DNA from: Kiritimatiellia bacterium
Lineage (GTDB): Bacteria; Verrucomicrobiota; Kiritimatiellia; RFP12; UBA1067
NCBI GenBank assembly: GCA_017447805.1
Contig: JAFSMR010000046.1
Coordinates: forward strand, 14,072 to 78,071
Reading direction: 5' to 3'
Length of the DNA: 64,000 nt
Part shown: positions 36,103-44,680 of the stretch, piece after piece
How the letters are laid out: every line of letters starts with the position of its first letter
How positions within the stretch are numbered: the stretch's first letter is position 1
The notes under the pieces: model-generated
Seen by the model: the letters and a program-made list of their open reading frames with translations, nothing else
The model's database searches: none
Told to the model about the DNA's origin: nothing
Position numbers and translations under genes: made by a program

Positions 36103-36861
36103 TTACTGTTCCCAAAGGCATCCATCGATGGAGCGTATCGATACATAGTTGCCGTCGCCGAGGACGAGGTGGTCGAGGAAGCGGATTTCAGCAATTTTGG
36201 CAAGCTCGACAAGCCGCTCGGTGAACTTGATGTCGGCCTTACTGGGCGCGGGGTCGCCGGAAGGATGGTTGTGCGCGACCATGACTGCCACCGCGCCCCA
36301 CTTGAGCGCCTCTTTGAATACATCGCGGGCGAACGCCGGCGCGGAATCCGCCGTGCCGCGTGAAATGCGCAGCGGCTCGCAGATGGGACAATTCTTGTTG
36401 TTCAAAAGTAGCGCGTAGAGATTCTCCTTGTCGTCGCCGGGCGTGAGGACGGTCTTGAAGATGCGATAGGCGGTTTCCGGATCGGTCACTTTGTGCGCCC
36501 TCAGTTCGTCTGGCGCAAGGCGGCTCCAGCGGCGCCCCATCTCGAACGCGGCGGCGAGTTCCAGGCATTTGACATGCCCGAGTCCTTTGATGGGGCGGTC
36601 TCGGTTGGTCTTGTTCCAGATCTTGATACGCTCCTCCAGAGCGCGCCAATCGGCGGAGACGAGCGACTTCATGGAACCGAACGCCTCGATTAGGCGGCGA
36701 GCAAGTTCAATGACATTCAGCCCGTGGGCACCCGTCTTGAGAAGAACGGCGACAAGAGCCTCGTCTGGGACGAGCGCAGGGTCTGCTGAGCGTTCCATCA
36801 GTTCACGCGGCATAAGTTCTCCACCACGCTTGTCAAAGTTGTTCTTGGCGTTGTCTATCAT
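36103..36861 (-). CDS. radC: RadC family protein (JAB domain)
   Basis: MPRE, LLKTG, LELAAAFEMGRR, VAHNHPSGDPAPSKAD, LDHLVLG; start reset to 36861 (ATGA overlap). Confidence 0.92.
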   Translation of the reverse strand: MIDNAKNNFDKRGGELMPRELMERSADPALVPDEALVAVLLKTGAHGLNVIELARRLIEAFGSMKSLVSADWRALEERIKIWNKTNRDRPIKGLGHVKCLELAAAFEMGRRWSRLAPDELRAHKVTDPETAYRIFKTVLTPGDDKENLYALLLNNKNCPICEPLRISRGTADSAPAFARDVFKEALKWGAVAVMVAHNHPSGDPAPSKADIKFTERLVELAKIAEIRFLDHLVLGDGNYVSIRSIDGCLWEQ

Positions 36862-37868
36862 TGCGGGGTCTCCTTTCGAGTGCCGGGGGTTGGGGGGCAT
36901 CCCCCGTCGTTCGCAGCCACCATCGCCGCGATACGCGCGTTCATGGCGAGGCAGCCGGGGCGCGTGATTTTAAAGGGCGCGATTTCGGCGCGGTCGAACG
37001 AGCTTAATATCAGCTGCCGATGCGCGGTAAGCCAGCGAGAATCTTCAACCGACGGATCGTAGCGTTCGGGCAGCCCGTATGGCACTGTCTTTATCCAGCG
37101 CGAGCGAGGCAACGCTTTCAGCCGCCGTTCAAATTCGCGCTCCCCGGGCGAAATGAAGCCGCACACCGGCGTCCAGCCTTGTTTGGCGCGCTCGATATGC
37201 GCGGCGATTTCGTCTTCGAGTTCGGCGATCGTTTTCTTCATTGTGAGACGCACAAGATAGAGGAATGGCGTGGCGAGGATTGTGATGTCGCCGATGGCTG
37301 ACCATGGAAGCGATGCATCGAGGATGGGATGGCGCAAATTGGCGCGGAAGCGGAACATATCGGGGTTGTCCAGTTTCCAGAAATACCGCGCCGGGTTCAT
37401 CTTGATGTAGCGGCGAATGGCGGCCAGTTGCCGCGAATCGAACGAGATGTCGATCCAGTAATCGCGCAACCAGGCGAACGAGCGACGGGTGGCTGCGCCC
37501 CCCGGCCCCCCTGCGGGGGCATTGGCGGGGGGTCGGGGGCGGCAGCCCCCGTCGCTCGCAACCCCGTCGTTCGCCGTTGCTTCCATGAATCGATGTGCGA
37601 AAACGAGCGGGTTGAAGCGGAACTCGCCAACGGAGTTTACGATGAGCAGCAGATGCACATGGTCAGGCATGATCACAAAATCGCTTGCCGTGAAGCGCGG
37701 CTCGATTTTATGAAGGCTTAGCCAGAATTCAACCACCCTCTCGCCTATCGGCAACAATTGAGGCCGCTTTTTGCCGCGCACCGGCCGCGAAAGCACAGGT
37801 TGCCGCCCCTCCACGACGAAGGTGAAGAAGAAAAACCGCCGCCCAGTGTGGATGAGGGGGAAGTTCAT
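36858..37868 (-). CDS. Y1/HUH transposase-like (IS200/RAYT-type) protein with extra C-terminal domain
   Basis: FFFT, FVIMPDHVHLLL (HUH), W..DY, IRRYIKMNP (catalytic Tyr); C-terminal ~150 aa with GFISPGERE; ATGA-coupled on both sides. Confidence 0.8.
   Translation of the reverse strand: MNFPLIHTGRRFFFFTFVVEGRQPVLSRPVRGKKRPQLLPIGERVVEFWLSLHKIEPRFTASDFVIMPDHVHLLLIVNSVGEFRFNPLVFAHRFMEATANDGVASDGGCRPRPPANAPAGGPGGAATRRSFAWLRDYWIDISFDSRQLAAIRRYIKMNPARYFWKLDNPDMFRFRANLRHPILDASLPWSAIGDITILATPFLYLVRLTMKKTIAELEDEIAAHIERAKQGWTPVCGFISPGEREFERRLKALPRSRWIKTVPYGLPERYDPSVEDSRWLTAHRQLILSSFDRAEIAPFKITRPGCLAMNARIAAMVAANDGGCPPTPGTRKETPQ
36903..36918. repeat. 16-bp direct repeat CCCGTCGTTCGCAGCC, downstream copy
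   Basis: Identical to 37878-37893; partial copies at 37546-37560 and 37562-37574. Confidence 0.8.
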
Positions 37869-41933: not shown

Positions 41934-44680
41934 ACCGCCTTCATGAAGAACGAGGAAAGAGATGCAAGTTCGGTGTCGAACGCCTGCGGAGAGCCAAAGG
42001 CACGTGCGCCTTCCGCTAGCAGCTGTACGTTCCCTTCCGCGATGAGTTCGCCGCGACCGACAGCTCCGTTTGCGAGAATGATGCCAAGAGCCTCCTTGAG
42101 AACGTCGTCCTGTCCCGGAGTTATCGCGCCGCGCTGCTTCTGGCCCTTCCAGAGTTCGTAGTGTTTCGCGGAGGAGAAATACTGCGACGAGGAAAGGAGC
42201 GAATAGAGCTTTGGCGACCGTCCAAGGCCGAAGCGAGCGAGGCCGAGCCAGTTAGTCACGGCATCGCGCTCTGGCACGGACGAAATGCGCACGACATCGT
42301 TCTGCCTGATGAGCGCGTAGGCGTTCCATACCTTCGGACAGGAGAAGGAAGAGTTGAAATGGAGAGCGTCGTCGCGTATCGAGGCAAGGGACGGATAGTC
42401 AAAGCGATGTTCGCAAGCCTCCTTGACGGCGGCGATGGCCGCATTGCCCGTAGGGTTGGCCTTGAGGAATGCCTCGAATCCGTCGAGGACGCTGCGAGCC
42501 TCGGCATGGGAGAAGCCCGTGTAGATGATCTCATCCTTGCCGGGCTTCTGTATGACCACATAGCCGGCGTTGAGTTCCAGAAGATAGTCGCGCTCTGCGA
42601 TATTGTTTATTAGCGGCGCGACAAGTGCGCGGCGGGCCGTGTTCGGTTCCGATGCGGACATGAACGGCGGGAGCGATCCGTTCGACAGGGCATCGAACAC
42701 GGCTTCTCCCATGCTTTGCATCGGGAAACCGGCGATGGCGGAAAACTTCATCCGCTGGGCCTCTGTCGATTTTGCGCTGATGCGCGAAAGACGCGAAGCA
42801 AGGAGGCGGAGGTTATCATCGGACACTATTCCGAGAGAAAGCTGTTCAAGAAGACGCTGGAGAGTGATCGGCGCCGGGCCGGCGGTCTCGCCGCCAGCCG
42901 TGCCGTTGTCGAACGGATGTTCCGTGACGCCAACGGCGTCTACGACAAAGAATTGATCCTTCCCGTTCGCGTTCGGCGTTACGGCTTTCAGCTGATCGGG
43001 GTTGATCGTGCGGCAGCCGCGTCCGCGCATCTGCACATAGAGCGAATTCGTGTTCACGTCGCGCATGAAAAGAATCACCTCAAGCGGCTTTATGTCCGTT
43101 CCGGTCGCAACGAGCGTAACGGTGACGGCGATGCGGAACGTTCGGGAATTGCGGAACTCGCGGATGAGCTTCTGAGGATCGCCTGCGGAATAGGTGATTG
43201 TCTGCACAAAGTCCGGAGCCTGCCCCGCGAACACCTCGCGGGCTATCTCGACTATGCGCCGGGCGTGATATTCCGACTTCGCGAAGATGAGCGTCTTCGG
43301 AAGAGAGGCCATGTCCGGTTCGCGGGCGAGGTCGTCCTTGTACATCTCCGAATAGACGGCCTTCTTGTAGGCTTCGAGAACCTGGCGGATGTGGTCGGGC
43401 TGGACAACGGCACGGTCGAGCTGTGGCGCATCGTAATGCGCAGGTTCGTCCATGACTTTTGTTTCCGTCTCGCGTGTCCTGCGGGTATAGACATCTACCG
43501 TTTCGCCTTGGGCGACGTCTACGCCCTCTGTGGCAGACTTTGTCTGGATGCGGTAGACGGAGTAGTCGACGTTGATGCCGTCCGCGATAGACTTCTCGTA
43601 GGTGTAGTTCACGACCGTGTTCTTGTCGAAAAACTCCACCGTCTCTGCCGAAGGCGTAGCGGTGAGGCCAATGAACTTCGCGGTATCGAACCATTCAAGG
43701 ACCGCTCGCCAGCGTCCGTAGATGGAACGGTGGCACTCATCAATGATGATGGCGTCGAACCAGTCATGCGGCAGCTTGGCGAGCCGTCCGTCAACTACGA
43801 CAGGCGGCGCATCCGACTCGCGGTCTTCGGCATCTTCATCCTCGTCGCTCCGCGCATCCGCGCCGGTAAGGGCGGAATAGACGCGCTGTATTGTCGCAAT
43901 CGTGACGCTCGCCTTGGGATTGGCGTTGTTACCCTTGAGACGTTCTGTGATGAAGATGCCGGTAAGCGGCGCACCGTTCTGCGTAAGGCGGAAGGTGGAA
44001 AACTCGTTCAAGGCCTGTTCGCCGAGGTTGTTGCGATCTACGAGAAAGAGTATGCGCTTGGCGGGCGTGTAGGACAAAAGACGATAGGCGGCCATGCAGG
44101 CGGTGTAGGTCTTTCCTGCGCCGGTGGCGAGAACGACAAGCGCCCTATCCGCACCACGGCGGAAACTCGACTCAAGATTGGTCACTGCCTCAAACTGACA
44201 GGCCCTGAGAGCGCGGCGTTCGCTCCCCTTCAATTCCGGCAGCCCGCCCCAGTAGGACTTCACTCCAGATAGCTCAAGGCACTTCTTCGGTGTCGGCATG
44301 GTCGCTATGGGCTTGTATTCCCCCGATACGGCATCCAGCAGAAGGATCTTTTCGCCGTTGGCAAGGAGAACTATCTTCGGCTCGTCGAACCAGCGCGGGT
44401 ACTCGGCGGGGATGATGTGTGCGTAGTTGGCGGCTTGCCCTCCGGCGGCGGATTCAAGGTCGATGTCGCTGCGCTTCGCCTCAAGGACTCCGACAACCTT
44501 GCCGTCCACAAACAGAAGATAGTCCACCTCCTTGTTGCCTTCGAGCAGACCCTCGACAAGGGCGATGGCATTGTGTTCGTAGGTCACGCCGCCCCGGTTG
44601 GCGATGTGCCAGCCCGCATCGGCAAGCTGCTCGTCGATTTTGATTCTGGCGCGTTCTTCCGGCTTTAGTTCGTCAGCCAT
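41930..44680 (-). CDS. hsdR: Type I R-M restriction subunit
   Basis: VDYLL..VLEAKR nuclease, [37 protein letters not shown]. Confidence 0.95.

Follow-up and report, generated by a model that had tools for sequence, protein, structure and literature searches.

The island and its genes

We analyzed a stretch of 64,000 nucleotides (nt) from a Kiritimatiellia bacterium (assembly GCA_017447805.1, contig JAFSMR010000046.1, positions 14,072 to 78,071), hereafter called the window. On its minus strand, from 36103 to 44680, six open reading frames (ORFs) stand head to tail and encode HsdR, HsdM, YhcG, HsdS, an HUH enzyme with a DprA-like domain (P0001) and RadC (Table 1). The locus is a complete type I restriction-modification (R-M) operon, with HsdR, HsdM and a two-domain HsdS, in which additional genes are embedded.

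At all five junctions, the stop codon of one gene overlaps the start of the next within an ATGA on the coding strand. A preliminary description of the locus, made from its letters alone, had reported these five 4-nt overlaps, including those on both sides of the HUH gene, and we confirmed each of them. The catalytic motifs that it had called intact can also be read in the translations: the HUH and tyrosine motifs of P0001, the JAB motif of RadC and the PD-(D/E)xK motif of YhcG. In a second study, contigs run across the radC-HUH junction as well as the HUH-hsdS junction and show the same hsdS-HUH-radC order, and the gene order is therefore not an accident of assembly. The overlaps between hsdR and hsdM and between yhcG and hsdS are also present in an orthologous island (L196).

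Matches of HsdR to the NCBIfam type I endonuclease models fall under their cut-offs. The match of YhcG to the PADLOC candidate family PDC-S02 spans nearly the full protein, both of its Pfam domains score over their cut-offs and a D...ELK motif is present, in keeping with the link to defense proposed earlier for this gene. RadC reaches 115.4 bits against PF04002 (cut-off 22.1) and 153.4 bits against TIGR00608 (cut-off 133.85), and it carries a JAMM-like metal-binding motif (E...HNHPSG..S..D). The longest ORFs of yhcG and radC extend to 40764 and 36900, respectively; we placed the start of yhcG at the ATGA, and a start at the ATGA is supported for radC by comparison with a 90%-identical relative, to which DNA homology sets in at that ATG.

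Table 1. Genes and sequence features of the island (positions in the window)
Feature	Position	Strand	Description
hsdR	41930..44680	-	916 amino acids (aa), type I restriction subunit (helicase/nuclease); Pfam ResIII 1e-35, SWI2_SNF2, HSDR_N, Helicase_C; PADLOC REase_I 3e-43
hsdM	40533..41933	-	466 aa, N6-adenine methyltransferase subunit; Pfam N6_Mtase 3e-66, HsdM_N; PADLOC MTase_I 1e-162
yhcG	39343..40536	-	397 aa, PD-(D/E)xK nuclease family, between hsdM and hsdS; DUF1016_N and YhcG_C; PADLOC PDC-S02 1e-118
hsdS	37865..39346	-	493 aa, specificity subunit, two target-recognition domains; two Methylase_S stretches; PADLOC Specificity_I
HUH-DprA-like fusion gene (P0001)	36858..37868	-	336 aa, between hsdS and radC
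radC	36103..36861	-	252 aa, RadC-type JAB domain; PF04002, UPF0758_N, TIGR00608, PRK00024
Lineage-specific segment	36864..37908	-	1,045 bp, HUH gene plus last 13 hsdS codons; no counterpart in L210 (blastn)
REP-like motif copy upstream of HUH start	37867..37893	-	inside hsdS 3' end; repeat family D1/D2
In-frame imperfect palindrome (REPIN-like)	37473..37575	-	between HUH and Tyr motifs; encodes low-confidence loop, residues ~98-131
REP-like motif copy in linker	37537-37574
REP-like motif copy and G5/C5 hairpin	36892..36918	-	3' end of HUH gene; encodes C-terminal tail

P0001 is predicted to join a Y1 HUH enzyme to a DprA-like domain

P0001 carries the motifs MPDHVHLLL and RRYIKMNP, and its H70, H72 and Y154 are invariant across an alignment of 22 homologues, in which conserved N-terminal and C-terminal parts flank a low-complexity linker of very variable length. 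The AlphaFold model (pLDDT, predicted local distance difference test, 83.7; low only at residues 1-6, 102-127 and 325-336, and under 50 at 102-127) has two domains, a Y1 HUH fold with the HuH and Tyr motifs and a DprA Rossmann-like fold, the latter corresponding to a conserved C-terminal domain of ~165 aa. Judging by this model, P0001 is an enzyme of the IS200 or REP-associated tyrosine transposase (RAYT) type with a fused DprA-like Rossmann domain, probably a binder of single-stranded DNA.

Profile matches to either family are faint. P0001 stays below the threshold of the Pfam model Y1_Tnp of IS200 (E 0.017) and reaches 30.7 bits against the NCBIfam RAYT model NF047646, the cut-off of which is 80. 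The Pfam model of DprA/Smf (PF02481, DNA_processg_A) gives no match to P0001 even at E<=10, a P0001 profile run against the sequences of the PDB reaches DprA only at E 0.47, and no PADLOC model matches the protein. Our literature search found no paper on a RAYT-DprA fusion.

The family is large and patchy. A word-indexed search returned 505 relatives at E<=0.001, whose labels name Kiritimatiellae or "REP element-mobilizing transposase RayT", and an exhaustive profile search returned 875 representative clusters at E<=1e-10. Among 301 genomes of the class, 27 hold matches at E<=1e-20, with up to 4 places per genome; a laxer search at E<=1e-8 extends this to 72, and a single genome can then show as many as 8 matched stretches, with each gene contributing two or three. 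Near-identical HUH-DprA-like proteins occur in different taxonomic families on the family tree. A plasmid or phage origin found no support, as a tblastn search of 72,556 plasmid and 50,697 phage records gave no match to P0001.

The genome itself holds a single copy of P0001 and a 26%-identical paralogue. A multi-copy IS200 element was ruled out on this count, and PF01797 matches nothing in the genome at E<=0.01. The paralogue (L178, G000:C44:7154-24080, gene 7320-8975) belongs to a second clade of HUH-DprA-like proteins and stands in a non-R-M context, with a 35-nt inverted repeat pair just downstream.

REP-like repeats mark the borders and the inside of the HUH gene

The motif GCGA[AG]CGACGGG occurs four times in the window, against 0.58 expected, and four times in the whole 2.25-Mb genome, always at the HUH gene: in the last hsdS codons, twice in the linker and in the 3' tail. 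G5-N(2-6)-C5 hairpins are likewise found within the genome only at this gene. The in-gene palindrome of ~100 nt folds, as DNA, at -44.7 and -47 kcal/mol (z -4.45 and -4.95), and none of 200 shuffles did as well. The preliminary description had taken the hairpin ends expected of an IS200-type insertion to be missing; palindromic repeats do lie at both borders and inside the gene, all within coding sequence.

Similar repeats accompany relatives of the gene. Arrays of the same motif in both orientations flank a 76%-identical homologue in L003 and a homologue in L063. Four other homologues (L062, L067, L068 and L074) have their own, different flanking palindromes, and those in L135 and L179 have in-gene palindromes. 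The linker region of P0001 varies in length among homologues; since the motif is read in different frames in different homologues, linkers and tails are variable. A pattern scan for the motif counted 1 in G000, 4 in G033 and 0 in three other genomes, all draft assemblies in which repeats may be under-assembled. Read by eye, a GTGG precedes the motif at a distance of a few bases in L003 and at the 3' copy of the window, and not at the other copies (the canonical foot, 5' of the hairpin, is GT[AG]G).

The repeat layout at the HUH gene is that of a REPtron, in which a RAYT (TnpA_REP) is paired with repetitive extragenic palindromic (REP) sequences (E. coli TnpA_REP, PDB 4er8; PMC6006769). Both have palindromic repeats on either side of the gene and a Y1 HUH fold that includes the HuH and Tyr motifs, and both are distributed patchily, in one or a few copies per genome. 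In contrast to REPtrons, P0001 has the additional C-terminal domain (the words DprA and Smf are absent from the main text of PMC6006769) and scores under the RAYT cut-off; its repeats are not dispersed in the genome, and its gene lies within an operon instead of an intergenic REP cluster. It differs further from the IS200/IS605 transposases TnpA of IS608 and ISDra2: at double their length, it includes an additional domain, and it does not belong to a multi-copy insertion sequence.

The C-terminal domain of P0001 escapes the DprA/Smf model, and the operon lacks the phosphoribosyltransferase gene of Shosta, which pairs the DprA-like ShosA with ShosT. It also differs from DprA and ShosA in being fused to a nuclease/ligase domain; we know of no such fused domain in either.

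Most relatives of the HUH gene lie outside R-M operons

We collected 39 loci of P0001-type relatives with up to 8 kb per side: 37 non-self places from the 301 class genomes (L062-L098), together with L003 and L004. The latter two were kept, as holding both domains, from 29 loci of a species-genome scan with alignment A1; the 27 dropped matched no more than a short HUH-motif stretch or, in a few, the N domain. None of the 39 loci has radC, hsdR, hsdM or hsdS nearby, and one has yhcG, 4.5 kb away. In the second clade, to which the paralogue belongs, one of the 20 sampled best places is in a type I R-M operon (L179, between hsdS and hsdR). Together, 58 of the 59 sampled relatives are outside R-M operons.

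When PADLOC was run on the two nearest neighbors per side at 58 loci, clear defense genes appeared at six (L062, L065, L088, L093, L095 and L191), and residency of the family in defense islands was not found beyond such few loci. At L065 (G240:C94, 5339-8424), the HUH-DprA-like gene directly follows the cmr5 and cmr6 genes of a CRISPR locus of type III-B. Occurrence of homologues in random contexts and in several copies, which the preliminary description had named as counting against its proposal, is thus largely what we found for the HUH gene, with up to 4 places per genome and nearly all sampled relatives elsewhere than in R-M operons. Conserved membership of the HUH fusion in the R-M system, as had been proposed, is unsupported, given linkage at 0 of 39 and 1 of 20 loci and the hallmarks of a REPtron.

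Orthologous islands carry a specificity-switching module in place of the HUH gene

The island L210, assembled on one contig, reads hsdR-hsdM-hsdS-tyrosine recombinase-inverted hsdS'-radC. At the DNA level it is 82% identical to the window over hsdR-hsdM and 84% over radC. In a blastn comparison, the match to radC sets in at 36863, two bases ahead of the start codon, and the last hsdS match ends at 37909; what lies between is the lineage-specific segment of Table 1. An integrase and hsdS' precede radC in L207 and L208, a recombinase and an inverted hsdS' are found in G399 (on two contigs), and L206 and L214 have a resolvase. The HUH gene is absent from all six loci whose RadC is at least 84% identical and whose upstream sequence extends far enough.

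This layout of hsdS, recombinase and inverted hsdS' is the one of phase-variable type I loci such as the pneumococcal ivr, and L210, L207 and L208 match it. The operon in the window does not: its hsdS is the only match in the whole genome, and ORF and Pfam scans show no recombinase gene in the operon. Unlike phase-variable loci, it lacks both the recombinase and the silent copy, which were either lost or never present, and the HUH gene stands in their place. The HUH gene most likely became lodged in the island in replacement of a specificity-switching module.

The two extra ATGA junctions are readily accounted for. The HUH gene starts with ATGA in L003 too, so that hsdS simply reads through repeat-derived codons to a TGA. 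The hsdS frame would run in this way, over its last 13 codons, to the TGA inside the ATGA start of the HUH gene, and the HUH frame would run through a repeat to the TGA inside the ATGA start of radC. As both frames read through repeats to the next TGA, the two junctions would be read-through products.

In type I systems, strains commonly differ by swapped target-recognition domains. In the contigs of the second study, both hsdS recognition domains have given way to unrelated sequence of about the same length (520 and 349-407 letters), with joints at 37963/38469 and 38686/39100, while the conserved hsdS parts, the HUH gene and radC are ~99% alike. This replacement is strain-level specificity swapping, and the HUH enzyme is not required for it.

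yhcG is a variable member of these islands, present in L196, L205, G399 and G396 and absent from L210; it is probably a recurrent companion of type I systems here. Inside yhcG, 40122-40185 matches its own reverse strand at 81%, a palindrome in coding sequence, and the G396 orthologue shows a comparable match to itself.

Recurrent association of RadC with type I R-M systems

RadC is, to our knowledge, among the most widespread bacterial proteins without an established function. It is present in 88 of the 101 genomes of the order, and the genome studied here has a second radC of 40% identity on contig C10. Among the best 14 non-self RadC places in the 101 genomes, 8 directly adjoin type I genes (L131-L136, L138 and L142); one of the other six follows a resolvase at a contig edge, and five are in housekeeping contexts. 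Within 1.5-kb flanks, type I genes adjoin 6 of 29 RadC loci, all among the ten most similar and none among the 19 least similar. A scan of species genomes found hsd genes adjoining 5 of 11 RadC loci and added L208, L210 and L212. Besides the window, radC stands beside type I genes at 12 distinct loci, which fall into at least three parts of the RadC tree and include HsdR of two architectures; within this R-M-associated group, it often comes directly after hsdR. In this order, RadC repeatedly accompanies type I R-M systems. The preliminary description had taken the HUH enzyme and RadC together as accessory parts of an extended type I R-M system: the linkage of RadC stands (8 of 14), and the HUH enzyme as a conserved part does not.

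Our literature search listed no paper on an operon linkage of RadC with type I R-M. RadC has been predicted to be a nucleic-acid-processing JAB domain (PMC5512222), and RadC genes are reported beside ArdB anti-restriction genes on mobile elements (PMC12458937). These RadC/ArdB modules hold the same RadC family and are linked to type I restriction biology, whereas RadC is found there with anti-restriction genes on invading elements and here in a restriction operon.

The operons of this group hold further genes. At L136 (G074:C47, 1214-8801), hsdR-radC is directly preceded by a DEAD-helicase/phosphoribosyltransferase gene together with a true member of the DprA family (PF02481), a Shosta-like pair that abuts the type I/RadC unit. 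A SLFN_AlbA_2/HATPase_c_4 gene lies between hsdM and hsdS or hsdR at L133, L134, L138 and L212, and at L142 GmrSD and a SMODS gene follow radC. Type I operons in this group are hubs for extra nuclease-like genes. An accessory nuclease gene inside a type I operon has a paradigm in PrrC, an anticodon nuclease whose gene is embedded in the EcoprrI type I locus; it would be one for YhcG and RadC, although the protein families are unrelated.

Four type I operons embed an HUH-DprA-like gene

HUH-DprA-like genes are embedded in R-M operons in the window and at L135, L142 and L179, four in all. The gene orders, on the same strand with overlapping or abutting frames, are X-HUH-hsdR-radC (L135), HUH-hsdR-radC-GmrSD (L142) and hsdM-hsdS-HUH-hsdR (L179). 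Profile comparison shows both domains in the L135 and L142 genes, and a profile-profile alignment of A1 with A3 (L142-type) covers both domains at a probability of 98.5%. On the family tree, the four embedded copies need 4 changes, each copy nested among non-R-M relatives, and are therefore not descended from one R-M-linked ancestor. The gene X that directly precedes HUH-hsdR-radC at L135 (2-2449) is an ORF of 815 aa with no Pfam or PADLOC match.

Surroundings of the operon

On one side, the operon is flanked by housekeeping genes for an Obg GTPase, a pyridoxal phosphate (PLP) enzyme and a nitroreductase. Rfam at gathering threshold and a tRNA scan found no RNA genes at the island or its borders. 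Promoter-like sites number 8 (4.4 +/- 2.0 in shuffles) and terminator-like sites 7 (10.8 +/- 3.7).

Upstream of hsdR, a repeat of ~130-225 bp at 44872-45096 has 90-91% identical copies on three other contigs (C22, C62 and C57) and may mark the border of the island; within it, a 42-bp unit is present in 2.1 copies (45025-45114). Just downstream of radC, the hexamer AGTTGT is repeated in tandem (36001-36033, 5.3 copies). Many loose contig ends and a raised summed depth in all four runs at 35843-36204 suggest a variable or repeated stretch.

Discussion

On balance, we favor the reading that the locus is a type I R-M island with YhcG and RadC that carries a REP-associated HUH-DprA gene as a passenger, and we hold it somewhat more probable than its denial. 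The island would be a horizontally mobile set of hsdR, hsdM and hsdS, with YhcG as an embedded accessory in the gap between hsdM and hsdS and RadC as another at the distal end. The HUH gene would be no conserved part of the island. As a member of a large, patchy family it would travel, as RAYTs in general do, with its own palindromic REP-like repeats and, with them, would occupy the place taken in orthologous islands by a site-specific recombinase and an inverted silent hsdS'. It would probably be transcribed with the operon, and its enzyme would most likely cut and rejoin single-stranded DNA at its own hairpin repeats. What the analysis shows directly is the anatomy of the locus, its folds, the distribution of the motif and the contexts of relatives, and from there we infer the insertion history, the passenger status, the co-transcription and all biochemical activities. 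The 4-nt overlaps on both sides of the gene make for perfect translational coupling, yet they are no proof that it belongs to the system.

Several observations weigh against a mere passenger. The gene fits a classical REP-mobilizing RAYT poorly, because its REP-like motif is not spread through the genome. Three further, independent HUH-DprA-like genes lie inside type I R-M operons, and 2 of the 12 R-M-adjacent radC loci besides the window hold one (L135 and L142). By a rough estimate, four arrivals seem to exceed chance: with roughly one such gene per several Mb, a 10-kb operon would be hit far less often than in one of 12 loci. The HUH gene is intact, with its catalytic residues invariant, and stands in the same place in the contigs of the second study; no excision product was seen, nor an empty site within the same species. 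Several of the related loci are on contigs of only 3-5 kb, and their neighborhoods are incomplete. The repeated entry could reflect a selectable function, or else a bias of insertion or survival toward operons that are mobile, non-essential and highly expressed.

The alternative that fares best is the one of the preliminary description, that the HUH-DprA-like enzyme works, together with RadC, as an accessory in an extended type I R-M system, where it might act on single-stranded forms of invading DNA or on ends made by HsdR. Type I enzymes depend on double-stranded DNA, and single-stranded invader DNA escapes restriction. The four independent occurrences in type I operons, three of them with radC, the tight same-strand junctions and the intact HUH catalytic residues all speak for such an accessory, as do the other nuclease-like genes (YhcG, SLFN_AlbA_2 ATPases and GmrSD) embedded in the operons of relatives. 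However, all but one of the 59 sampled relatives are outside R-M operons, most without defense neighbors; the embedded copies do not group into a clade, the HUH gene is missing from the closest islands, P0001 has no PADLOC match and the REP repeats point to an activity directed at the gene itself. We consider this alternative unlikely, at about one chance in a handful.

Less likely again is that restriction involves neither RadC nor the HUH gene, the two being unrelated neighbors that came to share a transcription unit on a mobile island. RadC is also a housekeeping protein across the order, its homology to relatives is limited to the gene, with unrelated flanks in L130, and the radC of G399 is preceded by 70 nt that, by eye, resemble a promoter of its own. 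Against this stand the 12 distinct loci at which RadC abuts hsd genes, across two HsdR architectures and at least three RadC lineages, and the 19 less similar, housekeeping-type RadC loci, none of which has adjoining hsd genes. It is very improbable that the HUH enzyme took over from an ancestral site-specific recombinase to drive the exchange of hsdS target-recognition domains: it sits exactly at the site of the integrase or resolvase and inverted hsdS' of relatives, and both recognition domains differ between the two studies within ~99% alike flanks, but the single hsdS match leaves no silent copy in the genome, the repeats are at the HUH gene itself and not at the recognition-domain borders, the gene precedes hsdR, away from hsdS, in L135 and L142, and such swaps occur in type I systems generally.

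The RadC group fixed at the ends of type I operons provides a concrete, testable setting for its function, in restriction, in the alleviation of restriction or in the stability of HsdR. The HUH-DprA-like fusion adds to the known range of REP-associated tyrosine transposases a further domain, which probably binds single strands. That it entered restriction operons repeatedly points to a new insertion preference or a new accessory function, and either would be informative. As a more speculative proposal, to which we give little credence at present, REP-associated HUH-DprA enzymes may have been repeatedly recruited into type I R-M/RadC operons as an arm directed at single-stranded DNA, or as a control on the restriction enzyme. 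In the former case, these enzymes would, together with RadC, deal with conjugative, transforming or single-stranded phage DNA that escapes the double-strand-dependent type I enzyme; in either case, their four independent arrivals would reflect selection instead of insertion bias.

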